Both the position numbers and the translations under genes were made by a program. From a virus, in the IMG/VR virus record IMGVR_UViG_3300045988_074170: a stretch of DNA of 64,000 bases; one strand, written 5' to 3'. This document shows positions 10,413-62,504 of the stretch, piece after piece (the first letter of the stretch is position 1; each line of letters opens with the position of its first letter). The notes under the pieces were generated by a model, which worked only from the letters and a program-made list of their open reading frames with translations, did not search any database and was not told the DNA's origin.

Positions 10413-10426
10413 AAGTCTTTCTTGAT

Positions 10427-12230: not shown

Positions 12231-12967
12231 TATTTACCTTTCTCAAACGTTTCAAAAGAGTTTCTTTCAATGTAGTCCGACGCTTCACAGAAAGCCACGA
12301 ACTCTTCACATAGTTCTGACAGCCCAAAGAAATTGAAAATATGAACACCCAAGTCCCAGACCGGAGCGTCATACGGTTGGTCGTGAAGAACCACACAACC
12401 GCCAGCCTCATTCACCTCTTCTCCCTCTCTTTGAGCCTTTTCGAAGTCGTGCATAAAGGTTCTGTGCTTTCGCCACATGCAATCTCCCTTAGGAGACTCG
12501 CCAGACCTGTATGCTATCCGAGCACAATACTCATCCCATTGGTCGTCACGGTAATCATACCTGACATGGAGAATGTTCGTAAACTCACTCTCTCCGCATA
12601 AATCCAAGGGACGCAATCGCCATGATACAGTTGTTCCTGCACCATCAATCAAAACTCCATGCCCTGCCTTAGACGTTTCCTTCAAGAAGTAGGATAGACC
12701 CTCAGCCTTGCACAGTCGCGACGTCATACTGTCGTAACCTTGCCAGCGTCGGATACCGCCATTCTCATAGAATTTCCCAACGAAAACCATATTGAAGTCC
12801 TCGGAGTAAACCCCGACTTCCTTTTCCTTTCCGTCAAGTGTCTTAAACTTGTATGGGCGGAGTTTCATACCTAATGATTCGAAGAACTCGAGGAAGAGGT
12901 AAACCCTTGTAGATTTACCGCTCCCCGAGATGCCTTTAACCAATACTATGGATTCCCCGTCAACCAT
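12230..12967 (-). CDS. P-loop kinase, candidate 5-hmdU DNA kinase
   Basis: 245 aa with Walker A GISGSGKST at residues 12-20. It is the neighbour of the aGPT-Pplase-like gene, separated only by the homing endonuclease. The assignment rests on context. Confidence 0.4.
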   Translation of the reverse strand: MVDGESIVLVKGISGSGKSTRVYLFLEFFESLGMKLRPYKFKTLDGKEKEVGVYSEDFNMVFVGKFYENGGIRRWQGYDSMTSRLCKAEGLSYFLKETSKAGHGVLIDGAGTTVSWRLRPLDLCGESEFTNILHVRYDYRDDQWDEYCARIAYRSGESPKGDCMWRKHRTFMHDFEKAQREGEEVNEAGGCVVLHDQPYDAPVWDLGVHIFNFFGLSELCEEFVAFCEASDYIERNSFETFEKGK

Positions 12968-14003: not shown

Positions 14004-14873
14004 CATTTAATTTTGGAGATTGTTAATCTAACAGGCTCTTTATCCTGCTATTTCTTTGCTTTATTTTGTTATATGCAAAGTTCAGACTATATCTTCACTT
14101 TCTTTTGAAAGGCAGGACACTCGTGTCAGCATTACTGTCCTCAACCTTACTTGTTTGGACTCGGCTGTTAGTCGTTGAACCTTCAAGAACATTACTGTTC
14201 ATGCTTGGCTGCTGATTGCCCACTTCTGGGTTTTCCAGCAATTCACCCTGTTTTAAGACGCCAATTATTCTGCCTGTTTTATTGTCTCTAATAATTGTCT
14301 TTTCAAAATTATGAATTGTCGTATGCTCTCCGCGAGTTAAAACTTCAAGATTTTCTAATCGATTGTCAGTCTTATCTTCATTTATATGATGAACATCGTA
14401 ACAATCTTTCAAAACTATCCAGCCACATATATTTTCAAACAGTTCTTTAGAAAACTTGTCATAGTTTCTTTCAATGATTAATCTGTGTTTCAATATATAA
14501 GTTGCCTTCCCTCTATCTCGAATTTTACCACCTTTAGGATGTCCAGGAACATTTTCCATTATATAACCTGCTGAATTTATCTTTTCATCATGCTTATAGG
14601 AACTATTCAACTCCCCTGTCAATCCAAACTGATGGTTCCCCTCACCCGTCATATATCTTGAACGTAAAATCTTTCCACATTCTTTTGAGCATGAAACTCC
14701 ATGAATTTGACGTTTAAGTCTTGACGGCTTTACCCACATTTTAACTCCACAAATTGAACATTGACAATTTGGTTCTCTATCAAATTTTCCCATACCATTT
14801 ATATTTATCGGCACAAAGTTAGTCAACTTTAATAAAGAACCATAGACTCTTATCAAGCAGTCATTAAAAGTCC
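14004..14873 (-). mobile_element. Group I intron (870 nt) interrupting dUTPase motif III, carrying an HNH ORF
   Basis: The 5' exon ends in U (GAC GCU|) and the intron ends in G (AAAUUAAAUG|GAU). An R-like element GUUCAACGACUAACA lies at 14166-14180 and an S-like element AAGAUAUAGUCU at 14084-14095. Compare Tetrahymena GUUCACAGACUAAA and AAGAUAUAGUCG. P7 pairing GACUA/UAGUC is possible. Confidence 0.8.
14095..14793 (-). CDS. HNH homing endonuclease encoded inside the dut intron
   Basis: The HNH motif DVHHINEDKTDNRLENLEVLTRGEHTTIH and N-terminal Cys clusters (CQCSICG, CSKECG) are present. ATG at 14793 (MGKFDRE); the ORF track extends to a TTG at 14856. The 3' end overlaps the intron R and S core elements. 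Confidence 0.8.
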   Translation of the reverse strand: MGKFDREPNCQCSICGVKMWVKPSRLKRQIHGVSCSKECGKILRSRYMTGEGNHQFGLTGELNSSYKHDEKINSAGYIMENVPGHPKGGKIRDRGKATYILKHRLIIERNYDKFSKELFENICGWIVLKDCYDVHHINEDKTDNRLENLEVLTRGEHTTIHNFEKTIIRDNKTGRIIGVLKQGELLENPEVGNQQPSMNSNVLEGSTTNSRVQTSKVEDSNADTSVLPFKRK

Positions 14874-15149: not shown

Positions 15150-15641
15150 TTACAACCAATCAAAATTGTTTATAATTGTGATGTCATTATATTTAACGAG
15201 AAAATCACCTTTCGAGCCTCGAATTTTGACTTCCTCCTTAGCAGGATTGTTGCTTACGACCTCCATTATCGTCCCTTTGTACAGGACTTTGGTATCCCTG
15301 TAAAGGATGTACCAACGGTCATAATTTCCCTGAACTCTTCTCTGTTCTTCGTCTTTGTACTGAAACGCTGGAAGACCTTTCTTTCCCCAGAAATTCTTTT
15401 CGACGAACTCCGCCACATTATATCCAGGAGTGAAAATACTGTCGACGTTGAATTTCACACTCAACTCAATAATCTTCAACCGCTTCTTCTTAGCAATATC
15501 CGCTGCGACTGACGCATACGTTCCATTACGGTATATAGAGGAACGTAATTTGTGAGTCAGATACTCCAATTGAAGCCGTGTCAAAAACTGTCTGTGGCGC
15601 AGTCCTTTGTCCTCACAGGTTTCTTCTCTTACTTTGTCCAT
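15150..15641 (-). CDS. Hypothetical protein
   Basis: 163-aa co-oriented ORF. Confidence 0.6.
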   Translation of the reverse strand: MDKVREETCEDKGLRHRQFLTRLQLEYLTHKLRSSIYRNGTYASVAADIAKKKRLKIIELSVKFNVDSIFTPGYNVAEFVEKNFWGKKGLPAFQYKDEEQRRVQGNYDRWYILYRDTKVLYKGTIMEVVSNNPAKEEVKIRGSKGDFLVKYNDITIINNFDWL

Positions 15642-15655
15642 AATTACTCAAATTT

Positions 15656-16366
15656 TTATTTCCATAAATATCCTCGATAAGGCAAACCATCCTCAAGTCT
15701 TTTCCTTAAAGTATGCCCATTCAATTTCAGTTCTCGTTTGATATCAATTATAGTATTCCATTCTTTAATAAATATTCCACCCTTCGAATATTGAAATACT
15801 TTTCTACAATTATTTTGATACCCAGGTTTTCCCGAATTCGCTTCTGATATTTTTCTTTTTGTTTCTTCTGAATGATGTTTTCCATATAATGGATGATTCT
15901 TTCCAGAAAGTTTATGATTTCCGAAATTCGAATTTAATTCCCCAATTCGTAATTTAGCAGCATCGCTCATTCTTTTCAAAGTCTCATCCGAAAATTTTCT
16001 ACCTTTCAAGGCTTTGCTGATTTTAGCAAGTGATTCTTCAGAAAGATTTACTAAACCATCCCCACCATCTGTCGAATTATACCCGTCAATCTTAGTGTTG
16101 AACCGCTTTATAAGCCTCATTTCAGCGTAGTCAAGTTTCCTCTTGAGAGCATCCTTCGTAGGAGCCTCCACGAACATCACCTCTTCGACCAGGAAGTTCT
16201 CCTCACCATACTTTCGTATGGCTCGGTGGAACTTGTGGTCGGAGCCTCGCTGAGAAGAACGAACATGCCGTCTCCAACGACTCCTTATAGAGAGCATCGT
16301 TTGCCCGAAGTACAGTTTCCCAGTGGGCAGACAGGTGACGCAATATATGAAGCCTTTCTGAATCAT
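15656..16366 (-). CDS. GIY-YIG homing endonuclease (free-standing)
   Basis: Contains GFIYCVTCLPTGKLYFGQT, FHRAIRKYG and YNSTDGG, plus NUMOD3-like repeats. Overlaps the primase stop by 4 nt. Confidence 0.9.
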   Translation of the reverse strand: MIQKGFIYCVTCLPTGKLYFGQTMLSIRSRWRRHVRSSQRGSDHKFHRAIRKYGEENFLVEEVMFVEAPTKDALKRKLDYAEMRLIKRFNTKIDGYNSTDGGDGLVNLSEESLAKISKALKGRKFSDETLKRMSDAAKLRIGELNSNFGNHKLSGKNHPLYGKHHSEETKRKISEANSGKPGYQNNCRKVFQYSKGGIFIKEWNTIIDIKRELKLNGHTLRKRLEDGLPYRGYLWK

Positions 16367-17397
16367 AACTTTCCCAAATAAAAATTTAACGGGTCTTCAA
16401 CATTTTTCAAAACATCTTCAAGTTCTTCAATTGAAATATTTCCGGGGTCTACTCCTGGAGTTCTAATTGCTGCAACCCAAACTGAATCAAACAAATCCCT
16501 CATTCTCAAGGCTGCTTCTTTACTTTCTTTTATTGTTCCATAGTCGTACAAAAGAATTATATTCTTCACTTTCTTTTTCAAAAGCATATCAATTTGTCCC
16601 CGACCAATAGAATTCCCAAAAGTAAAGCAACATTTCAGCCAATCCTTTTCTGTTAAGTTCAAAAGATTTGAAATTCCTACATAATCAAAAATCCCTTCAA
16701 CCAAAATAACCGTTTCAGTCCTTCCCTCTATCAACTCATCGCAACCCCCTAACAGGTCTTGAAAGTTATTCTCGGAGTTCCTGTAACGTAACACCAAGTC
16801 AGCCTCGTGACGCTTGTATGCCTCAAGATTTTCTTTGTGCCATTCCTTTGAATACCTACTGCGTGCCCACCACGCCACACACACACCATTGACTTTCATC
16901 TTAAAGATGATGAAGTTCTTCAACTTCGCTTCCAACGGTGTATTGGTATAGGAAGGCTCGAACTCCGCATAGTGTTCAGGTCGGAACCCACGATTATTCA
17001 GGTACTCATCATCCACAAGTGGTTTCAGCCGTAACGGAAGAGTAACAGGCTTTAATTCCTCTTCCTGTACCTGTTCCGCATCACCCTCCATCCACTTCGA
17101 TGTCTCCCCCTGAATATCACCTATCTTCGGACAGTTCTCAAGTTCATTCGGCTTGACTGTATAGGAGCGTTTCGCGAGGTCTGTTCTACCAAGTTTCTTG
17201 AGGAACTCATAGACGGACACTTTACGAGGACACTTCCAACAGTGGAACGTTGCCACGCCATTCATGTTGAAGATGATACCCCACTTCCCTGCTTTTCCGC
17301 AGAAAGGACAGTCCATATCCTTATTCGTGAGCCACCCCTGTGAACCAAATGGCGTGAGATTAAAATCAGCGATTATCTGTTCCTTATCGTACCGCAT
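16363..17397 (-). CDS. DNA primase (zinc ribbon + Toprim)
   Basis: Zinc ribbon CPFCGK...HCWKCPRK and Toprim-like ILVEGIFDYVG / LLYDYG. ATG at 17397 is preferred over the upstream track start, which would overlap the helicase. Confidence 0.75.
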   Translation of the reverse strand: MRYDKEQIIADFNLTPFGSQGWLTNKDMDCPFCGKAGKWGIIFNMNGVATFHCWKCPRKVSVYEFLKKLGRTDLAKRSYTVKPNELENCPKIGDIQGETSKWMEGDAEQVQEEELKPVTLPLRLKPLVDDEYLNNRGFRPEHYAEFEPSYTNTPLEAKLKNFIIFKMKVNGVCVAWWARSRYSKEWHKENLEAYKRHEADLVLRYRNSENNFQDLLGGCDELIEGRTETVILVEGIFDYVGISNLLNLTEKDWLKCCFTFGNSIGRGQIDMLLKKKVKNIILLYDYGTIKESKEAALRMRDLFDSVWVAAIRTPGVDPGNISIEELEDVLKNVEDPLNFYLGKL

Positions 17398-17404
17398 AAC
17401 GAAA

Positions 17405-19048
17405 TTATTTCTTGCGAGGTACAGGCTTCCTCGTTGTCTTCGGAGTTTCCTGCACACCCTTGTTTGCTAAATATTCCTTGAGCGACTGTTTAGTCTGTCG
17501 CTTATTCAACGTCTCTTGTGGCTCCTGCGCAGCCGTTTCACCCTCGCCAACTACCTTTGTTCCGTACACTCCTGGTGCTATCTCTACTCGCTCCTTCTTC
17601 TCCCCAACGGCTGCTTCTCCGTTACCTTTACGGCTGCGACGGCTCTCAAGCCTGTCAAGAGCCGACATATCCAACACCTGCTCAACGATTGTTGAACGTG
17701 ATATATCGTAGAAGAAGCCGTTCTCGTAATTAGTAGGGATTCGAATGATGATACCATTGTTTCGGTAGTTTCGTAACTTATCACAATAGATACGAGCCAT
17801 GTTCTGTTTGCCCTCTTCAATTGTAATGTTACCTGTAAACACGAACGAGAATGGCTTGATAAGTGTGCGGTCACCCTCTGTATTCTGGCGAGTGATTACC
17901 CGTGTCGGGTCGTTCCATACTTCAATAGGAACGTCTCCCGTCTGGGTCGCTGTAATTACGGCACAGTCGTATTTCTTCGCGATATCCTTTAATCGCTGGG
18001 CACACTTCTGTAACCTGTATTTGATGAAGTTCGGGTCGAAGTCAATCTTCTTATTTTCTCCTGTCAATAACAGGTCAATAGAGTCGACTGTGACCAAGTC
18101 AGGATAATACCCATACTCTTTTTTATAGTCCTCTATCGCAGCCACCAAGTCGGCTATCGTCATGTCCATCATCTCTTCAGAAGCGTACACGTCAATATCA
18201 CTGTTCACCGTTTGCGCCCTCTTGATGAGTGCGGAGATACGTTGTCGGGTCTCATCGCTGACATCACCCCTCATGATTTTCGCATAGGTAGTGTTCGCCA
18301 ACATTTGGTCAAACTTAACAACCGCCTCATCACGACCACCCTCTAACTGAAAGTGAAGACAATGATTGTGGGCGATTGATGTATTGTACCAAGAGAAGTA
18401 TTTAAGAGCCGTGGATTTACCAACACCGGAACGCATGATGAGTAAGACGGTATCCTGGCGAGGAATTCCCCCATCAGTAATTTCGTCAATCGTTGATATT
18501 CCTGTCGGTATCTTTGCCCGACGTGTTTCATCCTCGGCTTTCATTTGTGCCGTTCCTATGTTCCGATAGAAATCCCTGTACACCCGTACAAACTTCCCTC
18601 GGAACTTGTCTAAGGAAAAAGCGTTTATTTCCGCCATTCTTTTCTCAAGAAGAAGCATCGCTTCCTCTGGCTTCCCTTCATTATACATATCCGACACTTC
18701 GTGCTGAGTAGCAACAAACGTCTGGCGTCTAATAAAGGTTTCCAATTGCCGTGTCATGGGTTCTACCTCTGGAAGTTTAATTCCCTTGACCTCAGCAATC
18801 TTCTTTGAAACTTCCTCGTTGTTAGGGAAGGTCATTTCCACCATACCGAATGTCGCCAGATTACCCGTTTTCTTCATCGTATCTGCCAACACTTTCAGCA
18901 TCGCTTTACACCCTCCCAATTCTCGGGGGAAGTTACTTAAATCAAGATTATCTACCACCAACTCCGCAAACTGTTTATTCGCAAAAGCCAACCTCAACAT
19001 TTCCTCTACAAAGTTAGGTGATAGAATAGCATCAACTTTTTTGCCCAT
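17405..19048 (-). CDS. DnaB-like replicative helicase
   Basis: 547 aa with Walker A RSGVGKST, Walker B DLVTVDSIDLL and a RecA-fold C-terminal half. Adjacent to primase. Confidence 0.8.
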   Translation of the reverse strand: MGKKVDAILSPNFVEEMLRLAFANKQFAELVVDNLDLSNFPRELGGCKAMLKVLADTMKKTGNLATFGMVEMTFPNNEEVSKKIAEVKGIKLPEVEPMTRQLETFIRRQTFVATQHEVSDMYNEGKPEEAMLLLEKRMAEINAFSLDKFRGKFVRVYRDFYRNIGTAQMKAEDETRRAKIPTGISTIDEITDGGIPRQDTVLLIMRSGVGKSTALKYFSWYNTSIAHNHCLHFQLEGGRDEAVVKFDQMLANTTYAKIMRGDVSDETRQRISALIKRAQTVNSDIDVYASEEMMDMTIADLVAAIEDYKKEYGYYPDLVTVDSIDLLLTGENKKIDFDPNFIKYRLQKCAQRLKDIAKKYDCAVITATQTGDVPIEVWNDPTRVITRQNTEGDRTLIKPFSFVFTGNITIEEGKQNMARIYCDKLRNYRNNGIIIRIPTNYENGFFYDISRSTIVEQVLDMSALDRLESRRSRKGNGEAAVGEKKERVEIAPGVYGTKVVGEGETAAQEPQETLNKRQTKQSLKEYLANKGVQETPKTTRKPVPRKK

Positions 19049-19058
19049 ACTAAATTAT

Positions 19059-21158
19059 TTAAACTGCGTCAATTTTTATCATTACAGTGCTCTCTCGTAA
19101 CTTGTTAATCGCCATGAAAGAGGAAGACACGGTATCATCGTGCCCACTGATACTCTCAAGAGTTCCCTTATCGCTGCGGAACGCAACCGAGTTGAACTCC
19201 CCAAACATCTGGTCAATCTTAGCAGCCGTGTCAGGATGATACGGGCACTTGATTACACCTCTCTCAAATAACGCTGCAAGTGATGCCCACCCTGTTCTCA
19301 GGTCTTTCTTATTCCCGGAAGTCGTCGTGAACGGTGTAATATTCTTGATACCCATCTGAACGCACATATCCGCCAATATACTTTGGAAGCCGTTGTTTTC
19401 CACGACTATCTCGTTTGGCTTGAACACCCTGTTCAGTAGGTCAATCTTCTGTATCTGTTCATTATGAGATAATCCCTTTTCCCGGAATATGTATAGGAGA
19501 TAATAATTCCCCTGGACATCCTTCCCCCAAACTGTATAACAAGTATAGTCGGCTCCCACATTTCCTGAGACAGCGAAGTCACAACCCATGACCACCCTCT
19601 GTAACTTGATAGGAAACGACTCTATGTTATCAACGAGCCTGACGTTTTCCATCCCGATTGTACTCCTCTTTAATATCTCCCAAGGGAAGATTGTACTGTC
19701 GTCGGAAATAGGTACGACCAAATACTCACGAGAGAATACGAGCGTCCCCAGAGACGCTTTTTCCTCCATAAGTTTTGCCCACGTAAAACGGTCAGGAGCC
19801 AACAGGCGACCGTCCGGGAATATGGCTGGGTACTCAAAGACACGGAACTTTGGGTCTTTCTTTAATTCGGCATACAAGTCCTCTTGCTGATACGGTGTAC
19901 CATCAACGATGTTATATCCATACGGCTCAACGATAGGCGTGATAGCACCTTTAAACAGGTCTCTCAACTTCTCACGCTGTTCCAATGAATAGATACTACT
20001 CTCATCTGGTAAGTCATCGCTGACCGCTGCCCCCACGTGAAGACCACGAATAAACCCGTCCTTTCCACGGAGGTGAAGTTTCGTTCCGTTCTCACATTCA
20101 ATACTTGTCGCTGCCAGTGAAGCCTTTCCAGTAGGGTTCAGTTTTGCTGCCAAAGCCTCATTCACACGGATTTCCTCAACCACCTTGTCAATGTGCTGTT
20201 TACCCAGTTTTTCCGTGTTCGTAATAATACAGGTTTCCTGGCGATTTTTATTGTCAGGAATATCAGGTCGCATAAACGTCGGACGTCGGTAACTGTATAA
20301 TCTCCACAGCGGGAACGCCATACAGAACTCGTAGGAATTGTGAACGACTGTACCATCCTCTAACTGAAACAGATGGTCACCATCGCACATAAACCCGTAA
20401 TAAGACTCTTCCCCAATAGGTTCAACCGTTATATTCCCACGCTCGAATACAGGCTTATCGTAAGAGAACACCCTGTACCCCTGGAACCGTCTTTGCTTCT
20501 TGACAGGATATTTCAGGAATTGTCCCATTTCTATTTCGACATACTTCTTCCGCTTCGTGTCAAAGAGGCACATCGTGTGCGCTCGGTTCACGGCATACGG
20601 CATACCATTCTCCTGCTCAACCCTGAACATCTGGGCACGACCGATATGTCGTGTCAGAACCTTTCGGGGAGTGAAGTCTAATCCCATCACTTCCATTCCA
20701 GGATAGATGTCCTCTATATTCTTCACGGAAAAGTCAGCCATCAGCACCCGTGTACCTCTCGCAAAGCATTTACCGTGAGAACGAGCAGCAAGATATGCGC
20801 TGTTCGGATAAAGTTGCACCATGTTTCCCCATTCAAGATTTCTCCAACCCTGACGGAAATTAGGAAGCATAGTTGTCTTGAAATAGTTGTACGACTGAAC
20901 TTTCAGCGTCTCATCCATTGACTCTTCCAATTGGTCAATGTAGTTGAGCCGTTCAGTTTCAAGCGTGGTATTTAGGGAAAGAACATTATTCGTCTGAATG
21001 AAGATTTCCGATAACAGTGCATCGACGTCACCACCATAGCCACCAACCAATTGATTGATAGCCACAGGTGGTAACGACTCAAGCACGTTGAACGCAGTAG
21101 AGAACACCGTGTCCAACTGTTTGTACGACAACTTTAAATCTTCATTAAAATGTATCAT
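19059..21158 (-). CDS. terL: Terminase large subunit (precursor containing a mini-intein)
   Basis: 699-aa ORF. Joining the exteins restores the P-loop AARSHGK|S. C-terminal RNaseH-like nuclease region (MGCDFAVSG..., GHDDTVSS). Confidence 0.8.
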   Translation of the reverse strand: MIHFNEDLKLSYKQLDTVFSTAFNVLESLPPVAINQLVGGYGGDVDALLSEIFIQTNNVLSLNTTLETERLNYIDQLEESMDETLKVQSYNYFKTTMLPNFRQGWRNLEWGNMVQLYPNSAYLAARSHGKCFARGTRVLMADFSVKNIEDIYPGMEVMGLDFTPRKVLTRHIGRAQMFRVEQENGMPYAVNRAHTMCLFDTKRKKYVEIEMGQFLKYPVKKQRRFQGYRVFSYDKPVFERGNITVEPIGEESYYGFMCDGDHLFQLEDGTVVHNSYEFCMAFPLWRLYSYRRPTFMRPDIPDNKNRQETCIITNTEKLGKQHIDKVVEEIRVNEALAAKLNPTGKASLAATSIECENGTKLHLRGKDGFIRGLHVGAAVSDDLPDESSIYSLEQREKLRDLFKGAITPIVEPYGYNIVDGTPYQQEDLYAELKKDPKFRVFEYPAIFPDGRLLAPDRFTWAKLMEEKASLGTLVFSREYLVVPISDDSTIFPWEILKRSTIGMENVRLVDNIESFPIKLQRVVMGCDFAVSGNVGADYTCYTVWGKDVQGNYYLLYIFREKGLSHNEQIQKIDLLNRVFKPNEIVVENNGFQSILADMCVQMGIKNITPFTTTSGNKKDLRTGWASLAALFERGVIKCPYHPDTAAKIDQMFGEFNSVAFRSDKGTLESISGHDDTVSSSFMAINKLRESTVMIKIDAV
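20337..20768 (-). mobile_element. Mini-intein (144 aa, no endonuclease domain) in the TerL Walker A motif
   Basis: Starts CFARGTRVLMADF (block A, Cys1) and ends DGTVVHN followed by the +1 Ser. Boundaries checked at codon level: TGC at 20768-20766, AAT at 20339-20337. Confidence 0.8.
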
Positions 21159-21846: not shown

Positions 21847-22551
21847 CTATTTTAATTTGTAACTAAATTCAAATCCATCAACACTTATAATCTTCCCCAA
21901 ACAACAGCGATTTATTCTACCAATTCCAATAGAAGTTTCTAAAGCAGCCTGAGTTAAACTATCAAAAGTTTTCAGCAACTTTCCATCTAAATATTGGTAA
22001 ACTGCTTTCCTTCCAACTCCAGTCCTACCTTTGAGAGAATCAGAAATATGTTTCCTCTGTTCAAGAGTTCTCTTCTTTCCCCGAAGTTTTTCTGCTCTAT
22101 TTTCTATTTCTATTGTGGACTGTTTTCTTCCTCTTAATGGGGAAATACGCTTTTCTATTTCTTCCTCAGATTGTTTCTTGCCTCTATTTCCTGAGCCCAT
22201 TTTATACAGAATTTCTTCAGTAAACTCATACCCACTTCGACCACCCGAAGTTGAATTATAACCATTCTTATAGGAATCGTAAAAAGAAATCCAATATTTT
22301 TCTCTTTCATCCAACCATTTCACGCATTCAACTAAATTTTGAAATGGTTTCTTTTCAAGGCATTCAACAGAAAAAGAATCTTTACCGTATTTTCGAATTG
22401 CTCGATAAAACTTACAGTCCTTTATTCGTTTCTTTGTTTTAAATGCCGTCCGGATATGCCGATTAAATCTTCGATGATATTCATGAGTAACCTGACCAAT
22501 ATAAACTTTATTAGTCTCAGAGCAAGTCACCATATAAATATATCCAGTCAT
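21847..22551 (-). CDS. GIY-YIG homing endonuclease (free-standing)
   Basis: Contains GYIYMVTCSETNKVYIGQV, FYRAIRKYG and YNSTSGG, plus NUMOD3-like repeats. Confidence 0.9.
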   Translation of the reverse strand: MTGYIYMVTCSETNKVYIGQVTHEYHRRFNRHIRTAFKTKKRIKDCKFYRAIRKYGKDSFSVECLEKKPFQNLVECVKWLDEREKYWISFYDSYKNGYNSTSGGRSGYEFTEEILYKMGSGNRGKKQSEEEIEKRISPLRGRKQSTIEIENRAEKLRGKKRTLEQRKHISDSLKGRTGVGRKAVYQYLDGKLLKTFDSLTQAALETSIGIGRINRCCLGKIISVDGFEFSYKLK

Positions 22552-56406: not shown

Positions 56407-57678
56407 TTATTCTTTCTTTTGGCTCTCTTTACCACGCTTTTCCAGTTCCCCCTTAACTTTCATTATAGAGTAAAGCAACTCCGCTCTCTGAGACTTCTTG
56501 ATTGCTTCAAAGTTCTTATTTAAATCGTTCACAAGTCCTTTCTCCATCTTCTTAAGATTGTCGGTAGGGATATTCTTAATGTTTGACCACTTTTCATCAA
56601 CCCCCTGTCGAACTTTCTCTGACAGGTATTTCTTCAAGTTCACTTTCCCACTGTTAGGAATGTCATCGAACTTTACACGGGTATAAGTTTCTTTGTCTGT
56701 TTCTTTTTCGGTTTCAGACTTTTCGTTCTTTTCCGGCTCATTTTTAGATTCGGCTCTTTTCTTAATTTCGTTTTCTACAGCTCGAAGCCTGTCATCATAT
56801 TTCGCTGATTTTGGGTTGGCGGTAAAATATCCATGACGCTCAAATGCCCGTCTTTCAAGCTTGTCTTCTTCATTATATTTTTCGCGAAGCTTATCTTTTA
56901 ATTCATTAAGAGACTTATCATCAAGAGACTTCAAATCTTCTTTATTAAAATCAACACTAATATCAATCAGCTTGTCAAGAATAGAAGGAGCCGAAGACAA
57001 AGCTTCTTTTATAAGAGGCTCAAGCATATCTTTCAAATCTTCATTCGGTCCCCAACTTATATAATCTGTAGCAATAATAGATGCTTTAAGGTTTCCCAAG
57101 GATTTTCTATCACCCTTCTTGTATATCTCGATGCCCCCAGTTCTTGTTGCATGAGCAAAATAACCCTTCTTATCTAATAATTTATTCAAATTACGAACAT
57201 ATCCTTCAGAGTTCCCAGGAGTTATATAGATATTGGGTTTCTGATTGGTTTTATCTTCTTTTTTTGCTTCTTCAACATTCATATCACCATATTTCTTCTG
57301 CTTAGAAGCTTCATTGATTTTCTTATTGGTTTCTTTGATTTCCTTTGCGTTTCTCTTCTCTTCGTTTGCCTTGACACCAGCATTAATCTTTTCAGCCTGT
57401 TTCTTAGCAGCCTCGAGTTTGCTCTTCTTTTCAACCAATACCATGATTTGGTCATTAGGAAGAGTCAACTTTCCTTCGTTGATAGCAGCGATGACCTTGT
57501 TTACAGCCTCGAGTTCTTTCGCTGGGTCGTCTTCCTTCTTTTCAGTCTTTTCACCGTCTTCAGGCTGTTTCTCCGCACCGTACTTTTGACCAACACGATG
57601 TTTTCTACGATTTTCAGCAGTGTCCGAGTAAACACCCGAACGAGATTTCATTATTGTTCTTTCTGTCAATGTAACCAT
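56407..57678 (-). CDS. K/E-rich coiled-coil protein with N-terminal GVYxDTxxNRRxxRVGQxY motif
   Basis: 423 aa. Motif SGVYSDTAENRRKHRVGQKY lies near the N-terminus. Confidence 0.55.
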   Translation of the reverse strand: MVTLTERTIMKSRSGVYSDTAENRRKHRVGQKYGAEKQPEDGEKTEKKEDDPAKELEAVNKVIAAINEGKLTLPNDQIMVLVEKKSKLEAAKKQAEKINAGVKANEEKRNAKEIKETNKKINEASKQKKYGDMNVEEAKKEDKTNQKPNIYITPGNSEGYVRNLNKLLDKKGYFAHATRTGGIEIYKKGDRKSLGNLKASIIATDYISWGPNEDLKDMLEPLIKEALSSAPSILDKLIDISVDFNKEDLKSLDDKSLNELKDKLREKYNEEDKLERRAFERHGYFTANPKSAKYDDRLRAVENEIKKRAESKNEPEKNEKSETEKETDKETYTRVKFDDIPNSGKVNLKKYLSEKVRQGVDEKWSNIKNIPTDNLKKMEKGLVNDLNKNFEAIKKSQRAELLYSIMKVKGELEKRGKESQKKE

Positions 57679-58005: not shown

Positions 58006-58508
58006 TATTCAACCGGAATTTGGTTCTTGTACGGCTGACCCACACGTCCCAGACGCTGATTGTCAGGGGTATCAGCATAAACACCTGTTCCCAACGACTT
58101 CATGATGTCACCCTCCGTTTCACCGTTCAACGATTTCAGGAACTCCAATGTAGGAGAATAAGCCTGTCCAACACGGTTCAGGCGACGATTTTCAGGGGTG
58201 TCACGATATACACCTTCCAAACCTTTCATGACAGTTCCGTCAGCAGCCGTTTCCCACTCAACCTGTTTAGGACGATAGAAGCGAATGACGTCTTTACCCT
58301 CTTCATCAGCGCATACGGCTTTCTGAAGATACATTACGTCAGCCACGAAAGCCTCTTTCTCCTCGGCTGTAAGTTCGTTGGCACGACTCTTCATGATTCC
58401 TTCCTTGTAATAGGAAGCCACCTCATCGGGTGTGAATACCTCGTATCCATTGTTACGAGCAGTTTCCTCAAACAACTGGAGGGAAACTTTCTTTCCTTTA
58501 TTTTCCAT
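58005..58508 (-). CDS. Protein with two GVYxDTxxNxRLxRVGQxY repeats
   Basis: 167 aa with GVYRDTPENRRLNRVGQAY and GVYADTPDNQRLGRVGQPY. First gene of the long minus-strand block. Confidence 0.55.
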   Translation of the reverse strand: MENKGKKVSLQLFEETARNNGYEVFTPDEVASYYKEGIMKSRANELTAEEKEAFVADVMYLQKAVCADEEGKDVIRFYRPKQVEWETAADGTVMKGLEGVYRDTPENRRLNRVGQAYSPTLEFLKSLNGETEGDIMKSLGTGVYADTPDNQRLGRVGQPYKNQIPVE

Positions 58509-58539
58509 ACGACTTGTAAAATTAAAAATTCTTTGTGAG

Positions 58540-58547
58540 CAAAGTTA
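58540..58547 (-). promoter_or_regulatory. -7 promoter box (TAACTTTG)
   Basis: Plus-strand caaagtta, 32 nt upstream of the ATG at 58508. Confidence 0.4.
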
Positions 58548-58590
58548 TTCATAAAATTTTAATATGGTAGGAGTGAGTTCAACGGTATGG

Positions 58591-58638
58591 CTCTAAAATA
58601 AAAACGGGCAGTGAGAAGATTCACATCCTCTCATGCCC
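58591..58638 (-). terminator. Intrinsic terminator with no upstream gene
   Basis: Minus-strand RNA GGGCAUGAGA-loop-UCUCA(C)UGCCC forms 10 bp with 1 bulge, followed by GUUUUUAUUUU. Confidence 0.55.
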
Positions 58639-58776
58639 CAGATTTCTGTCAAATACTTAAAACCTAAACTTTTCTTTAATGAACAAAAAGAATCTTCTTC
58701 AAAAACTTTTTAGATGTCAATCAAACAATGTAAATCAAATCAAACTTTAGACGATGTTCGATTAGGCGAACCAGAC
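58591..58776 (-). ncRNA. Candidate ~180-nt ORF-less transcript (promoter box to terminator)
   Basis: Bounded by the TATATTTG box at 58783-58790 and the terminator at 58591-58638. No ORF longer than 13 codons. Contains a GUUCG-CCUAAU-CGAAC hairpin and three UUUGAU repeats. Confidence 0.35.
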
Positions 58777-58782
58777 CGAACA

Positions 58783-58790
58783 CAAATATA
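58783..58790 (-). promoter_or_regulatory. -7 promoter box (TATATTTG) with no downstream ORF
   Basis: Plus-strand caaatata. The context GTTATATTTGTGTT matches the other promoter boxes in the window. Confidence 0.35.
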
Positions 58791-58842
58791 ACGCTGTCAA
58801 TGCACAAAAGTTTTTCTCATTTCCTTATCTCCTAACAACATC

Positions 58843-58958
58843 GGCTGCGACAGCAGCCTCTCAGGGCGAAGTCCATCGGAGATGGCGAAGCCTGTAAACT
58901 CCGAACGCAGTGAGGTGTGTTTTCGACGTGAAAATGACTTCTTAAAATTTCCGTTCGG
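58843..58958. other. GC-rich structured island in the control region (possible RNA or protein-binding element)
   Basis: Three elements: hairpin GGCUGC-GACA-GCAGCC (58843-58858); a helix at 58862-58894 with symmetric CGAAG/CGAAG internal loops around CCAUC-GGA-GAUGG; and a 7-bp long-range pair ccgaacg (58901-58907) with cgttcgg (58952-58958). Confidence 0.3.
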
Positions 58959-59074
58959 GACTCTAACTTGTATTTCCATTGAATACCCATTGTAACCATT
59001 ATATATTGATACACAAATTTTTGAGTCCGTGAGTCTTCCCTATTTTATGGGGAGTCTTCTCCCACAAATTTTGT

Positions 59075-59219
59075 TTTATAAAAAGGCTTTTGAGCGCAAT
59101 AAAAACAGTCATCTGAGCGCACGAAAACAGTCAAATGAGCGCAAATATACAGTCATATAAGCGCAGTCACCTACTTTATAAAAAGGCTTTTGAGCGCAAT
59201 AAAAAGTGGTTTAAGCGCG
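59075..59219. repeat. Iteron array (candidate replication origin)
   Basis: T(G/A)AGCGC(A/G) cores start at 59091, 59114, 59136, 59158, 59191 and 59212, with spacing 23, 22, 22, 33 and 21 bp. A 31-bp direct repeat tttataaaaaggcttttgagcgcaataaaaa occurs at 59075 and 59175, exactly 100 bp apart. Confidence 0.7.
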
Positions 59220-59321
59220 TCTTAATTTTGTCCCATAAATGTTAAAAACAGGCTTGGTTGCATCCCACCCCTTTAAATAAAGGCTTAGACATGAAGTGAG
59301 CCTGTTTTTAAATTTTCCCGT

Positions 59322-59329
59322 TAAATTTG
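59322..59329 (+). promoter_or_regulatory. -7 promoter box (TAAATTTG) for rep
   Basis: Plus-strand taaatttg, 24 nt upstream of the ATG at 59353. Confidence 0.45.
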
Positions 59330-59352
59330 TGTGGAAATAAAATTACAAAGAT

Positions 59353-60165
59353 ATGAAAAAGGAAAAAGGATTAATTCAATCGAACTTGGCGACCTTTGGT
59401 ATGTATAAGTTCTCGTCTTGGCAAATGAACTGTTTGGTTCATCTTGTCGAACAATTGCAACCTGCAATGTCCAGGGATATTGATTGGTTGAGTGCTGACC
59501 TGAAAGTGTTCCAGGAACATTTACCGTTGGATAAGAACGGCAATCTTCTCATTCCTATACAAATGAAAGAGATTGATAAATATCACCACGGTTCCATCGT
59601 TCTGAATGAAATAAAGAAGATGTTCAAACAGACGATTAAATACAACTTTACCAACGAACAGGGTAAATTGGTTCGGAGGGAGTGCTATCTTATCTCTACG
59701 ATGGATATTGACGAGGATGACAACATCGTACTGGGGATGCCTGTTACAAGTTTACGCTGGCTTCTATATTATGGTAAAGGAATAGGAGGCACAATCTACG
59801 ACAAGAAGTCTGTCGTGTCAATGAATGGTGTCTATGCCAAACGTATTTTCATGATGTTAAGCCGTTGGAAGGACAAGCGTGTCTTCTCTATGAAGATTGC
59901 TGTCATCATGAACGAACTCCAAACCCCTGAATATAGCGTACAGGATTTTGAACGAAAGGTTCTCAAGACGGCTTTTGAAGAAATGATTAGGAACCCGAAC
60001 TCGGTTCTTCAGTTCAAATACTCCCTTTCCTATACAGGTACAAAGGTCGGAAAAGGAAAACGAGGATTCGATACTGTCACGTTTAAAGTGTATGATAAAC
60101 TTTCTGAGGCTCAAATGGAAGAGTTCCTAACAGACTCATGGAGCAACAGAATAAATGCTATCTAA
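59353..60165 (+). CDS. rep: Rep_3-type (RepB-like, iteron-binding) replication initiator
   Basis: 270 aa. The N-terminus LIQSNLATFGMYKFSSWQMNCLVHLVEQL fits v.qsN.li.a.y.ls..e..l. YAKRIFMMLSRWKD fits ya.rlYelL..wk. Sits directly downstream of the iterons. Confidence 0.7.
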   Translation: MKKEKGLIQSNLATFGMYKFSSWQMNCLVHLVEQLQPAMSRDIDWLSADLKVFQEHLPLDKNGNLLIPIQMKEIDKYHHGSIVLNEIKKMFKQTIKYNFTNEQGKLVRRECYLISTMDIDEDDNIVLGMPVTSLRWLLYYGKGIGGTIYDKKSVVSMNGVYAKRIFMMLSRWKDKRVFSMKIAVIMNELQTPEYSVQDFERKVLKTAFEEMIRNPNSVLQFKYSLSYTGTKVGKGKRGFDTVTFKVYDKLSEAQMEEFLTDSWSNRINAI

Positions 60166-60706
60166 TATGGGCAAAGAAGAAACTTTAACAGTGCTGAATC
60201 TTCAGGCGGAATGTGACCGTCTGAATAAGAAGATTCTCTTTCTTGAGAAGGAGAACCGTGAACAGCGCAAAGAGTTGTCCGACTATGCCAAGCGAGAAGA
60301 ACAACTGTTAGGAGAGATTGAAACGCTCGAATCGGAACTTCGTGAGATTACCCGTGAACAGCGTCCTAAATATACACCCACGCAACCTGTGGAATCTGTA
60401 GAGGATTTTCTTCATCCCAAAGTAGATACTGGAACTGGGCTGAACCGAGTGGGCAAGAAAGGCTTCGAAGAAAAGTGGAAAGACTTCATGTATGCTTATA
60501 CAGACGAAATCTTCATTGAGGCTGACCAGCCTGATGTGCTTTTCTATCGTGACAGTGCCGATAATTGCTTTGTCACCCCAACGGGGAACACTCGGTTGCC
60601 TTTCCCTATTCTACAAGAAGACCTCGACCGCTATAATATCCTGAAAGTTCGACCATTGACTTGCGAGGAAATGGAGGAAGTGTGCAAAGAGTTCGATTTA
60701 ACTTAA
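60155..60706 (+). CDS. Hypothetical coiled-coil protein
   Basis: 183-aa ORF overlapping the rep stop. Confidence 0.55.
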   Translation: MLSNMGKEETLTVLNLQAECDRLNKKILFLEKENREQRKELSDYAKREEQLLGEIETLESELREITREQRPKYTPTQPVESVEDFLHPKVDTGTGLNRVGKKGFEEKWKDFMYAYTDEIFIEADQPDVLFYRDSADNCFVTPTGNTRLPFPILQEDLDRYNILKVRPLTCEEMEEVCKEFDLT

Positions 60707-60718
60707 ATTTCAATTACA

Positions 60719-60982
60719 ATGGTACAAATGAAGCCTTTTCATTACCTGTACGTCATCATCGGTATGTTGGTGGCTGCGTTCTTTGGAATCTCACTTGGTA
60801 TGGGTATCACGTGTATGATTCCGGTCTCATTCGTTGTCATTGGGTTGTTCGCTTACCAGAACATGAAGAAAAATCTTCCTGTCGGACAGGCTATCCTCAA
60901 CGGAGGTCTTCCACCACTGATAGGCGGTCTTCTCATTTGGCTATGCTTTCTACTTGGTAACTGGTTCAATGTAGGTGGCTGA
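60719..60982 (+). CDS. Small integral membrane protein (about 3 TM helices)
   Basis: 87 aa with hydrophobic segments YVIIGMLVAAFFGISLGMGITCMI, VSFVVIGLFAY and LPPLIGGLLIWLCFLLG. Confidence 0.55.
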   Translation: MVQMKPFHYLYVIIGMLVAAFFGISLGMGITCMIPVSFVVIGLFAYQNMKKNLPVGQAILNGGLPPLIGGLLIWLCFLLGNWFNVGG

Positions 60983-61287
60983 TGAAGAAACTGATATTCC
61001 TTTTCTTGACATTGCTGATTGTAGGCTGTGCGACAACTCGGAAGACTGTGTTCTTCGAAAGAGTGACTCCACAGCCTCTTTCAGTAATTGACAGCCTGAA
61101 CACCGTTCACGGCTTGAGCGTCCCTACGAATTTAGACTCGTGGGGAAAGACGTACTTCATCGGGAGCGACTCCGTGATGACCACTGTGTATGTCCTTACT
61201 GAAAAGAAGGATAAAGTTCTGTATATCTTTTCAGTCACACAAACGGCTGGAAAGGATGATGTTCTATTCAAATTTAGGCAAGAATGA
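60982..61287 (+). CDS. Small lipoprotein
   Basis: MKKLIFLFLTLLIVGC is a signal peptide with a lipobox. ATGA overlap with the preceding membrane-protein gene. Confidence 0.6.
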   Translation: MKKLIFLFLTLLIVGCATTRKTVFFERVTPQPLSVIDSLNTVHGLSVPTNLDSWGKTYFIGSDSVMTTVYVLTEKKDKVLYIFSVTQTAGKDDVLFKFRQE

Positions 61288-61308
61288 TAACAAAAGGACT
61301 TGGATTTG

Positions 61309-61332
61309 GTGCTGATATGTATATCAGTACCT
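61309..61332. repeat. Palindromic element sharing a 17-mer with the 62434-62504 inverted repeat
   Basis: Sequence ggtgctgatatgtatatcagtacc. The 17-mer gatatgtatatcagtac (61314-61330) is identical to 62488-62504, and the following (c)taaaatcaa versus taaatcaaaa is also similar. Confidence 0.7.
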
Positions 61333-61387
61333 AAAATCAATCACAAAACCACTGTGTCCACGTTATACATATATAAATTGAGAAGTC

Positions 61388-61840
61388 ATGAACAAAGAAG
61401 AGAAAAGAAACAAGCAACTTCTCGATATCCTCGAGAAGGACTTCGAGGAACTCTCCCCAGGAGAACTCCAAGTCGTTCGTAACGAAACTCGGAAGATATA
61501 CGGTATCGAGGGAAAGATAGGAACAGGCATAATCCTGAACTCCTACCTGAATATGAAGCGGAAGTTCGTCACCGAACTTGAACAGGTTTTGGTCTGCCCG
61601 AAAATGGCTGTTAAGGACTTCGGACCATTCGCTGGACGGCAGGTTGTTACCAACAAGATACCCGTTCCCACGTTTGACGGTCTTAACGGGGAGTCTGCAG
61701 GCATTTTCTATGTTGAGGGGTACACTTATCTCCCCGTCCTATCTGTATCGTATTTAGACGACCAAACAGAGGTAATTTGTCTATCTCCGGAAGGCTCGTT
61801 TTGTAGGATAACGACAAAGGATTTTGATTTCGAAATATAA
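61388..61840 (+). CDS. Hypothetical protein
   Basis: 150-aa ORF. Confidence 0.55.
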   Translation: MNKEEKRNKQLLDILEKDFEELSPGELQVVRNETRKIYGIEGKIGTGIILNSYLNMKRKFVTELEQVLVCPKMAVKDFGPFAGRQVVTNKIPVPTFDGLNGESAGIFYVEGYTYLPVLSVSYLDDQTEVICLSPEGSFCRITTKDFDFEI

Positions 61841-61857
61841 ACCGCTAAATTTGCGGT
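61841..61857 (+). terminator. Small hairpin plus U-rich run; overlaps a TAAATTTG promoter box (61846-61853)
   Basis: Hairpin accgc-taaattt-gcggt followed by gaaattttattt. Its loop contains TAAATTTG, 40 nt upstream of the ATG at 61893. Confidence 0.35.
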
Positions 61858-61892
61858 GAAATTTTATTTAGTTATAACTAATTTTAAGAATT

Positions 61893-62423
61893 ATGAAGAA
61901 AGATTTTATTACAGTAACTCCCGATAACGGAACAGGGGATAGAACAATAACTGTACAGGCTGATTCTAATGAACTATTAGAATCACGTTCGGCTTCCCTT
62001 ACAATAGGTGCGAGTGGAATTTCTAAAACTATCAGTGTGAATCAACATGGTTCTGTGGAGATATTCGCTTATATTCTTGACGCAAATGGTGATTATTTGT
62101 CAGACAAAGTAATTGTCAACGGAGCTAATATGAGCAATCAGGAACCAGCATATGTCGATAAAAATAAAGAACTGAATTTTGAAATAGAACCAATGGGGTT
62201 GAATCAACGCCTTGCAATCAATTTTATACCCGACCAGAAGTGGCTGTCCGCACAGAGTAGTTCTTCTGATTGGGGAGTGCTTCTAAAAACTCAACATGAT
62301 ATAACTGAAAGTATAATAATCAAGTCTATCGTGTCAGCCCCCAAGAATACGGTTGTTAATGTCGTCGTAAATAATATGGGAAGCATTACCCTAAATGTGA
62401 CACAAAGCTTGAAAAAGAATTAG
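61893..62423 (+). CDS. Protein with N-terminal half-BACON-like motif
   Basis: N-terminus MKKDFITVTPDNGTGDRTITVQADSNELLESRSASLTIGASGISKTISVNQHG. Confidence 0.55.
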   Translation: MKKDFITVTPDNGTGDRTITVQADSNELLESRSASLTIGASGISKTISVNQHGSVEIFAYILDANGDYLSDKVIVNGANMSNQEPAYVDKNKELNFEIEPMGLNQRLAINFIPDQKWLSAQSSSSDWGVLLKTQHDITESIIIKSIVSAPKNTVVNVVVNNMGSITLNVTQSLKKN

Positions 62424-62433
62424 CTTCGTTTTG

Positions 62434-62504
62434 GTACTGATATACATATCTACACTGGAAAGACTGGTTCGGGGATTTTCCAGTGTAGATATGTATATCA
62501 GTAC
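62434..62504. repeat. 28-bp perfect inverted repeat (15-nt spacer) between convergent genes
   Basis: Left arm gtactgatatacatatctacactggaaa (62434-62461) pairs with right arm tttccagtgtagatatgtatatcagtac (62477-62504). No U-tract on either strand. Confidence 0.85.

Follow-up and report, generated by a model that had tools for sequence, protein, structure and literature searches.

A candidate Rep_3/iteron replication origin in a Bacteroides-type gut phage

How does a gut phage that encodes its own replisome begin to copy its DNA? Replication origins are unknown for almost all uncultured gut phages, and the locus described here narrows one candidate to about 150 bp, where it is directly testable. 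It lies in a phage genome of about 105 kb from the human gut, of Bacteroides type, whose assembly is circular with a 55-nt terminal overlap; the window analysed is a stretch of 64,000 nucleotides of this genome. An earlier reading made from the letters alone (the sequence-only reading) saw here a plasmid-style iteron origin with a Rep_3 initiator, in a phage with its own DnaE, DnaB-like helicase and primase. These three genes were located in the window, with DnaE at 4610-8110, the helicase at 17405-19048 and the primase at 16363-17457 (phrog_47, E 8e-18). Beside this full replisome, no initiator other than Rep was recognisable in the phage, which argues for an origin at this locus. With RecA, SbcCD, RNase H, UvrD and SNF2 proteins also encoded, much of the phage's replication could be initiated through recombination or R-loops, a point against the origin reading. 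Further genes serve nucleotide metabolism and DNA hypermodification, and there are many homing endonucleases. On balance, we consider it probable that 58.96-60.17 kb is a Rep_3/iteron replication origin belonging to the phage.

Rep family, predicted fold and iteron anatomy

The locus contains the following features, in window coordinates.

58838-58930, + strand: three-hairpin element of about 90 nt, single-copy, about 150 bp left of the iterons
58965-59078, no strand assigned: moderately A+T-rich spacer, on the far side of the iterons from rep, with CACAAATTTT twice and GAGTC three times
59079-59221, + strand: iteron array, six direct repeats of 21-23 bp
59080-59100, 59102-59123, 59124-59145, 59146-59167, 59180-59200 and 59201-59221, + strand: the iteron units
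59244-59254 (AAAAACAGGCT) and 59299-59309 (AGCCTGTTTTT), no strand assigned: inverted repeat of iteron left halves, just upstream of the rep promoter
59323-59330, + strand: putative rep promoter box TAAATTTG, 23 nt before the rep ATG
59353-60165, + strand: rep, 270 aa, predicted Rep_3-family initiator with WH1 and WH2 domains
60167-60706, + strand: o183, 179 aa from M5, overlapping the rep stop codon

The 270-aa open reading frame had been taken for a Rep_3 initiator, with an HMM search named as the check. This search placed Pfam PF01051 (Rep3_N) above its gathering cut-off (27.8 bits vs 22.4; residues 9-170, profile positions 4-141 of 141) and PF21205 (Rep3_C) below it (15.9 bits vs 21.1), the latter a point against the origin reading. 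A profile of the Rep clade aligned at its positions 139-222 with RepE residues 139-226 (1rep, E 2.4e-8) and also matched pi (2nra, E 6e-5); the profile was needed for these matches, as a single-sequence phmmer search of Rep against the PDB returned nothing relevant. In the AF2 model (pLDDT 80.5, pTM 0.79), all 44 of the 44 Foldseek matches in the PDB at E<=0.001 were RepE, with probability 1.00. Compared with monomeric RepE, the model reached a target-normalised TM of 0.62-0.68 over 255-265 alignment columns, and the next matches were the WH1 domains of MSBI1.176 and pPS10 RepA. The profile and model matches combined indicate a WH2 domain, even though Pfam by itself falls short of one. By sequence, profile and predicted fold, Rep is a Rep_3 (WH1-WH2) initiator, as the sequence-only reading had it.

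By sequence, Rep is strongly divergent. A deep search returned 4848 relatives, of which just 28 reached E<=1e-30. The Rep region had neither a DNA nor a protein match in GenBank phages, while PHROGs gave only a weak match to a family of unknown function and NCBIfam only a sub-threshold match to RepM. Across 185,579 species-representative bacterial genomes, the clade was absent, bar one weak partial match in a MAG.

Upstream of rep, the TRAGCGC cores start at 59091, 59114, 59136, 59158, 59191 and 59212, all on the + strand. The core-to-core steps are 23, 22, 22, 33 and 21 bp, near multiples of the helical turn, and the 33-bp step results from an 11-bp filler between iterons. Each iteron joins a variable A-rich left half (AAAAAGGCTTT or AAAACAGTCA) to a constant right half, T(G/A)AGCGC. 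Both repeat patterns that had been noted from the letters, six such cores about 22 bp apart and a 31-bp direct repeat at a distance of 100 bp, hold exactly, the latter with 59075-59105 identical to 59175-59205. The array contains 6 of the 13 TRAGCGC matches in the 64-kb window; shuffles give about 5.9 cores per window, so six in 128 bp are far beyond chance. Likewise, the 21-mer AAAAAGGCTTTTGAGCGCAAT occurs twice (0.01 expected), and the full iteron pattern, an A-rich left half with its core, was found only in the array in about 102 kb of reconstructed genome. A search of the genome for a second iteron cluster, of the kind used for copy control, found none. The six repeats are in helical phase and lie 130-270 bp upstream of rep, an arrangement like that of iteron-type theta origins, which have at least three direct repeats of 17-24 bp beside the initiator gene.

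Between the array and rep, the 11-bp inverted repeat described by the sequence-only reading is present at 59244-59309, and AAAAACAGGCT/AGCCTGTTTTT can be extended to 18 nt at 89% complementarity. In two other allele types of the locus (B and C, below), the same stretch has inverted copies of the iteron left half, largely of the allele's own type, and locus L001 has a full inverted iteron at 121-141. The window, its close alleles and L001 all have inverted partial iterons, but none are apparent in certain distant lineages, L229 among them. Judged by RepE and pPS10 RepA, the inverted repeat is a probable Rep operator. The box TAAATTTG matches TAnnTTTG, which we take to be the Bacteroidota -7 promoter box, and TATATTTG stands at the equivalent place in L003 and L001.

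Rep and iterons co-vary and are exchanged as a cassette

In at least ten related phage lineages, the rep site is occupied by a divergent Rep that has 21-23-bp iterons of its own. Reps with 52, 41, 36 and 33% identity, and several weaker ones, are each accompanied by their own iterons at the same position upstream of rep. As the repeats change whenever Rep changes, in at least ten lineages, they are iterons in the strict comparative sense. Among strain variants, spacing and core are kept and the left half is altered as a set; copy number ranges from 3 to 6, with 3 in L019.

Whole-unit replacement is seen in loci L031-L033. Here the portal gene and its neighbour are 95-98% identical and further flanking genes 78-95% identical, with a Rep of 33% identity and unrelated iterons. 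Phages that are nearly the same (portal 98%) yet have different iterons and just 33% identity in Rep indicate that a unit of about 1.2 kb is exchanged as a cassette. A finer case is L020, whose flanks are 100% identical, with identity falling to 46-72% over the iterons and 79-90% in two parts of rep.

The left iteron half varies among three close alleles, A, B and C, as do residues 187-202 of their Reps; these matched changes count as three independent events, not nineteen. Between B and C, just five Rep residues differ (187, 195, 197, 201 and 202), and the iterons differ in the left half alone (AAAAAGGGGTT vs AAAAGGTGGTT). Residues 187-202 cover part of the predicted WH2 recognition helix and the positions immediately ahead of it: the RepE WH2 segment PDFRRRFL is aligned with residues 195-202, which open a helix (196-213) that precedes the beta wing in the AF2 model. 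Thus, natural alleles tie five amino-acid changes to a repeat change of 2-3 bases.

The cassette is not universal. In a sister group whose portal is 78% identical (L214 and others), o183 is present and rep is missing, and L214 also lacks the iterons. The phage family can therefore do without Rep, which counts against the origin reading. In more distant relatives, Rep was not found within 7 kb of the portal gene. The sequence-only reading had suggested, as an alternative, that the plus-strand block at 59.3-62.4 kb is a captured plasmid module. This finds partial support, in that plasmid Reps from Bacteroides are the nearest cellular kin (26-29% identity), the unit is exchangeable and one sister group is without it. 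The mobile unit is, however, just the iteron-rep segment of about 1.2 kb (about 58950-60150), not the whole block, and the cassette is old and widespread in this phage group, not a recent capture.

Could such a unit be something other than an essential origin? Rep might bind the iterons mainly within a swappable specificity unit used in competition between phages, for incompatibility, exclusion or evasion of parasites or nucleases that target origins. In favour of this are swapping between near-identical phages, iterons and the DNA-reading part of Rep as the most divergent spot among otherwise identical strains, Rep present in some sister lineages and missing from others, and two tandem Rep paralogues in L001 and L002. 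Rapidly exchanged Rep-origin modules under attack are also described for Vibrio PLE and ICP1 (PMC8263062, PMC7145576). Yet the unit occupies one fixed site beside the conserved o183 and the structured element, unlike a selfish insertion at varying places, and it comes without an attached nuclease or mobility gene. Moreover, a genuine origin would be equally expected to diversify its specificity, as lambdoid O/ori modules do. We regard this accessory role as unlikely.

The adjoining o183 lies downstream of rep at almost all Rep-positive loci and persists where Rep has been exchanged or is missing. Its predicted shape is a long coiled coil with a small alpha/beta domain (AF2 pLDDT 82), and its homologues are confined to this phage group. 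For this protein, the PDB offered no fold match at E<1, and Pfam, NCBIfam and PHROG gave no family, coiled-coil noise apart. A role as helicase loader or adaptor was rejected, as neither family nor fold matched, and a weak PHROG match to 'integrase' was set aside as coiled-coil noise.

A covarying structured element and the surrounding DNA

The three-hairpin element left of the iterons was recovered by a covariance model in 18 loci, all 18 of them Rep-positive. In its structural alignment, pairing holds for 99.7% of cells (28-50% in slid controls), and compensatory changes are seen in 11 of 24 pairs; a structure-blind alignment led to an identical fold and to compensatory changes in 10 of 24 pairs. 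The + strand is favoured by the G-U pairs. Four further Rep-positive lineages have weak matches in the corresponding place, and L214, the sole Rep-less locus searched, has no such element. The element is kept even where Rep and iterons have been replaced. Rfam had no match for it at E<=1, and across 58300-59500 the one Rfam hit was a miRNA match put down to chance (E 0.65). Its folding-energy z-scores are unremarkable. An alternative explanation as a 60-aa minus-strand open reading frame (58797-58979) was rejected because of 1-nt indels among variants and the compensatory pair changes. The element could act as RNA or as single-stranded DNA, and it probably belongs to the origin, for instance as a priming or loading signal on the + strand once this is displaced, or as an origin transcript. 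It is a candidate for an origin-linked motif of a new kind, in structured RNA or single-stranded DNA.

Between this element and the array, the spacer contains CACAAATTTT at 59012 and 59063, in agreement with the flanking repeats noted earlier. At 58965-59020, its A+T content reaches 72-75% (genome about 56%), with no repeated 13-mers. A strongly A+T-rich unwinding element with 13-mer-like repeats is accordingly not evident, which counts against the origin reading. From its position alone, the spacer at 58965-59078 is a candidate unwinding region; it is conserved among close relatives only. The GAGTC repeats of the sequence-only reading are present in three copies (59023, 59031 and 59052), but do not stand out: GANTC occurs 222 times in the window against 236 expected, hence without depletion, an equally tight second cluster exists elsewhere and distant relatives lack the cluster, so it is not above chance. 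With neither enrichment nor conservation in distant relatives, a methylation-controlled element by analogy with P1 oriR was rejected. For the DnaA box TTATCCACA, no match with at most one mismatch was found in 58509-59352, where three matches with two mismatches occur. The lack of such a host box counts against the origin reading, although a phage with its own helicase may not need one.

On a larger scale, the minus strand carries almost every gene outside 59.35-62.4 kb. The region is the genome's only major gene-strand switch point, which counts for the origin reading, and the iteron array falls in an 844-bp gap between a leftward block, portal and capsid genes included, and a rightward block. 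GC skew, which had been named as a check, was discarded as evidence. The minimum near 59 kb in the window vanishes genome-wide, and the sign of the skew follows gene strand across the whole 105-kb genome, so that it is uninformative and gives no independent support for an origin.

Initiation, maintenance and known systems

For the Rep_3/iteron origin, we infer binding, melting, helicase recruitment, autoregulation, a fork direction and use during infection as follows. Rep would be made from the Bacteroidota-type promoter, and its monomers would bind the six phased iterons, WH2 reading the variable A-rich left half and WH1 the constant TGAGCGC half. The Rep-iteron complex would melt DNA next to it, most probably on the far side from rep, where the phage DnaB-like helicase, primase and DnaE polymerase could then take over. 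Rep dimers would probably repress rep through the inverted left-half repeats just upstream of its promoter.

The same anatomy might instead maintain the phage as an episome. Under this scheme, Rep and iterons would keep a low-copy carrier or pseudolysogenic state, as P1 oriR/RepA do, and lytic replication would start elsewhere or by recombination. The closest cellular Reps are indeed Bacteroides plasmid initiators, the assembly is circular with its 55-nt overlap and the sister group dispenses with Rep. In addition, as the sequence-only reading had stated, an integrase was not found, either in Pfam scans of the larger open reading frames or in PHROGs and NCBIfam scans of some of them, so a dormant state would need to be episomal. 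However, the carrier state which that reading had raised finds no support. ParA/ParB, a toxin-antitoxin pair and a repressor were likewise not found in Pfam scans of the larger open reading frames of the circular genome (some also scanned with PHROGs and NCBIfam), nor was a second iteron control cluster seen in about 105 kb, although with many open reading frames lacking annotation the absence of maintenance genes is weak evidence. Furthermore, the clade's near-absence from the representative bacterial genomes speaks against maintenance, and the gene content, with a replisome, nucleotide metabolism, DNA hypermodification and homing endonucleases, is that of a self-sufficient lytic phage. We consider a maintenance origin quite unlikely.

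Very improbable, finally, is that Rep is a transcription factor only, with the repeats as operators at the main divergent promoter region and no role in replication: the array does lie in the gap between the leftward and rightward blocks, and Rep_3 proteins (RepE, pi, RepA) are known autorepressors, but six phased direct repeats with a separate inverted-repeat operator are built like an origin, not like an operator, the model retains the complete two-domain RepE-like fold and replicating Bacteroides plasmids show the same architecture.

Within the reading as a phage origin, we put forward one broader and rather doubtful hypothesis. Widespread lytic-type gut Bacteroidales phages may have a three-part origin, in which exchangeable iterons and the matching DNA-reading surface of Rep diversify under conflict between co-infecting phages or with origin-targeting parasites. 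As the third part, the undescribed structured element would give the phage primase/helicase a single-stranded signal for initiation or loading, or would act as an origin transcript, and together the parts would replace the DnaA-box and unwinding-element logic of plasmid Rep_3 origins. If so, the natural A, B and C alleles would be a readable recognition code for the WH2 domain of Rep_3. The alleles and the whole-cassette swaps are a ready experiment on DNA reading by Rep_3 proteins and on what drives origin diversification, whether incompatibility or an arms race. The Rep-iteron unit of about 1.2 kb could also serve as a new replicon for Bacteroidales genetic tools.

How does this locus compare with known systems? 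In lambdoid phages, origin and initiator are swapped together as replication modules. Lambda O with ori-lambda and P1 RepA with oriR share with the present locus, as predicted from its sequence, a phage-encoded initiator for repeated sites. Unlike the phage Rep, lambda O belongs to another family, has its iterons inside the O gene and relies on the P protein to obtain the host DnaB. In P1, RepA/oriR maintains the prophage as a plasmid, with a partition system and Dam-methylated sites, neither of which was found in this phage. The RepA of PLE is from an initiator family different from Rep_3. PLE is a satellite that exploits the replisome of another phage, whereas here the module lies in the phage itself. 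As described in PMC7145576 and PMC8263062, PLE satellites of ICP1 have an iteron-binding RepA that uses the phage replisome, and alternative RepA-origin modules occur among relatives. For O proteins, iteron binding is described in PMC7466680.

In gene content, the phage fits the 'Gratiaviridae', a family proposed for Bacteroides phages of the gut (Benler et al. 2021, PMC8008677), a likeness by description, not phylogeny. The section of that paper on this group lists a DnaG-type primase, DnaE, SF1/SF2 helicases, SbcCD, RecA, a contractile tail and Bacteroides/Parabacteroides hosts; a replication initiator or iterons are not mentioned in that section or among the hits of a term search of the text.

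Among the closest parallels are the iteron plasmids with Rep_3 initiators. The phage setting differs from them in its size of about 105 kb with its own DnaE, DnaB and primase, in the lack of a DnaA box, of a clear A+T-rich 13-mer unwinding element and of a second copy-control cluster, in the conserved structured element that accompanies the origin, and in a very divergent Rep (28 relatives at E<=1e-30, Rep3_C below cut-off). As in mini-F RepE/ori2, pPS10 RepA and R6K pi/gamma ori, the predicted initiator has two winged helices. Helically phased repeats of about 22 bp stand immediately upstream of rep in both, an inverted repeat made from part of the iteron adjoins the rep promoter, and iteron and Rep specificity change jointly.

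Among cellular proteins, the closest homologues are plasmid initiators from Bacteroides, Phocaeicola and Parabacteroides, the likely host group (p5482, NC_004703; pBFO42_1, NZ_CP036551), which align with the phage Rep over 89-96% of the protein (E 1e-16 to 5e-20). These plasmid Reps are longer (334-346 aa), the phage clade itself does not occur in these plasmids, and their iterons are 32-34 bp apart, vs 21-23 bp in the phage. The layout is nevertheless shared: the Bacteroides plasmids have three iterons 90-180 bp upstream of rep, as the phage has its array upstream of its own.

Iterons and Rep protein

The rep gene lies at the right edge of an 844-bp non-coding stretch (58509-59352) that houses an iteron array, with a long minus-strand gene block on its left and a short plus-strand block (59353-62423) on its right.

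Features of the rep-iteron region
58838-58930, + strand: structured element of about 90 nt, three hairpins, ~150 bp to the left of the iterons, with strong covariation
59091, 59114, 59136, 59158, 59191 and 59212, one strand: starts of six T(G/A)AGCGC cores, spaced 23, 22, 22, 33 and 21 bp
Two copies 100 bp apart: exact 31-bp direct repeat
Near the iterons: CACAAATTTT pair
AAAAACAGGCT/AGCCTGTTTTT: inverted repeat
23 nt upstream of the rep ATG (59353): TAAATTTG, candidate rep promoter box
59353-60165, + strand: rep, 270 aa

The phased cores, the 31-bp repeat, the CACAAATTTT pair and the inverted repeat are as the sequence-only reading had described them. Its GAGTC repeats exist as three sites, but their count is not above chance. 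The array holds 6 of the 13 T(G/A)AGCGC occurrences in the 64-kb window. Each iteron unit (21-23 bp) has the core as its right half and an A-rich left half (AAAAAGGCTTT, AAAACAGTCA or AAAAAGTGGTT); some 102 kb of reconstructed genome sequence contain no further copy of the full pattern. The array is also a frequent break point of short-read contigs. The TAAATTTG box matches the Bacteroidota -7 promoter consensus. Neither a DnaA box nor a clear unwinding element was found in the candidate origin region.

The proposed Rep_3 initiator pattern held, with Pfam Rep3_N above its threshold (27.8 versus 22.4 bits), Rep3_C below (15.9 versus 21.1 bits) and a predicted RepE-like fold. The AlphaFold2 model, built on an input alignment of seven sequences (pLDDT 80.5, pTM 0.79), contains two winged-helix units. 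All 44 Foldseek matches in the PDB at E<=0.001 were mini-F RepE (target-normalised TM 0.62-0.68 against monomeric RepE), Rep complexes with unwound origin DNA among them, followed by the WH1 (winged-helix) domains of MSBI1.176 and pPS10 RepA. Over WH2, the other winged-helix domain, a profile of the Rep clade matched RepE at E 2.4e-8 and R6K pi at 6e-5. Judged by sequence, this clade is a small, divergent branch; of the 4848 relatives with E<=1e-3, only 28 reach E<=1e-30, and no GenBank phage matched the clade. Two loci of related phages (L001:253-1949 and L002:253-1945) carry a tandem pair of Rep_3 paralogues (276 aa and 256-257 aa, about 23% mutual identity), of which the second is more typical and passes Rep3_C. 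Both contigs terminate within an exact copy of the window's iteron AAAAAGGCTTTTGAGCGCAAT.

Rep-iteron matching and cassette exchange

In this phage species, represented by nineteen copies, Rep occurs as allele A or as B and C, each about 93% identical to A. The iteron arrays sort into three corresponding types, which share their spacing and the TGAGCGC half and differ in the left half. Alleles B and C differ at five residues only (187, 195, 197, 201 and 202), and the sole difference between their iterons is AAAAAGGGGTT versus AAAAGGTGGTT. In the AlphaFold2 model, residues 195-202 lie where helix 196-213 begins, ahead of the beta wing, and the clade profile matches them to PDFRRRFL in WH2 of RepE. 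Between the iterons and the promoter there are inverted iteron left halves, largely from the same allele.

In a strain whose flanks are 100% identical to the window, identity is 46-72% over the iterons alone and 79-90% in two parts of rep. In phages with a 98% identical portal, Rep is 33% identical, the iterons are unrelated (AAAAGGGGGTTTATACGCTC) and the replaced segment runs from ~58950 to ~60150. The suggestion of a captured plasmid module is supported in part; the exchanged unit covers only this segment and not the suggested 59.3-62.4 kb. Across a portal-anchored survey of 80 loci, Rep_3 was found at one syntenic site only, where many lineages each have their own 21-23-bp repeats. The Rep-iteron correlations reflect only a few independent events rather than dozens, and all agree. 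We are highly confident that Rep and the iterons form a genuine binding pair.

The structured element

This element is conserved even at loci with a swapped Rep cassette. A covariance-model search found it as a single copy per genome, each time upstream of the Rep gene; in the resulting alignment 99.7% of cells are paired and compensatory changes occur at 11 of 24 pairs, against 28-50% in slid controls. A structure-blind alignment reproduces the three hairpins, and four more Rep lineages have weak matches at the equal relative position. Rfam gave no matching family, and the folding energy by itself is unremarkable. G-U pairs favour the + strand, and the conserved stretches are GGCGAAG...GGCGAAGCC and CCGAACG-CAGTGAGG. 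Candidate roles are those of an RNA (origin transcript, regulator or leader) or of single-stranded DNA (priming or loading signal).

Role in the phage and relation to known systems

The window encodes RecA, SbcD and, as previously noted, the phage's own DnaE, primase and DnaB-like helicase, as well as baseplate and portal proteins. We recovered the remainder by walking along IMG/VR contig 3300045988_070094, whose 55-nt terminal overlap indicates a circular assembly. It adds SbcC, NAD-dependent ligase, SNF2 and UvrD helicases, RNase H, ribonucleotide reductase and a lysin. Two further products encoded beyond the window (L108:18969-20588; L163:1798-2433) are a GroEL-type chaperonin (PF00118, E 6e-66) and a sigma-70-family factor. 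The reconstructed genome has no recognised integrase, as the sequence-only reading had noted for the window, and no recognised partition or repressor gene. Its gene set agrees with the published account of 'Gratiaviridae', phages of Bacteroides/Parabacteroides (PMC8008677); neither the 'Gratiaviridae' section of that paper nor a term search through the text gave any mention of an initiator or iterons. Nearly all genes are on the minus strand except at 59.35-62.4 kb, and GC skew tracks gene strand, so the proposed skew check has no bearing on the origin.

A thymidine-hypermodification set (9294-12967, minus strand) comprises a thymidylate-synthase-like protein, a 5-hmdU DNA kinase (PF18723, E 5e-75) and HMUD2 (PF18747), close to dNMP-kinase-like and YfbR-like 5'-deoxynucleotidase genes; the phage DNA probably contains modified thymine. 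Hint-domain inteins lie within the large terminase (19059-21158, minus strand), a UvrD-like helicase and a class II ribonucleotide reductase (L108:12601-15105, 15548-18889), and at least five free-standing GIY-YIG/NUMOD3 or HNH homing endonucleases are present (e.g. 11436-12230, 14095-14856, 15656-16366, 21847-22551). Two patches are variable. At 56650-57250, the centre of a 423-aa lysine/glutamate-rich protein (ORF 56407-57678, minus strand) has 25-60% DNA identity between otherwise 100%-identical strains; a repeated '...DTPENRRLxRVGQ...' motif is common to its N-terminus and the adjoining 167-aa protein. At 61300-62500, a BACON-domain protein (61893-62423) and its neighbour o150 are inverted, replaced or deleted in relatives.

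Most likely, the Rep/iteron unit would start replication of the phage genome and leave elongation to the phage replisome; we consider this role probable. A sister group (L214, L215, L220-L223, L241, L259; portal 78% identical) keeps o183, the gene downstream of rep, and lacks rep. In L214 neither iterons nor the structured element were found, and o183 adjoins a different intergenic region with a TTGATTATCA tandem and an A+T-rich stretch (L214:1043-2546). In more distant relatives, the sequence up to 7 kb from the portal gene showed no Rep. Thus, the phage family can replicate without the module; with its RecA, SbcCD and RNase H, the phage could initiate by recombination or from R-loops. That the exchanged unit is an accessory competition cassette is unlikely in our judgment. 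A plasmid-type maintenance role appears slightly less likely still, and that Rep is purely a transcription factor we regard as very improbable.

Replication initiation by Rep and its iterons would belong to a kind of system that is already well known. The closest plasmid relatives of Rep are the Rep proteins of Bacteroides, Phocaeicola and Parabacteroides plasmids (26-29% identity), which have three iterons upstream of rep at 32-34-bp spacing, in contrast to the 21-23 bp of the phage. What is new is the setting in a large lytic-type Bacteroidales phage and the lack of host DnaA boxes, together with a cassette exchange in which Rep-iteron co-variation can be read and the associated structured element.
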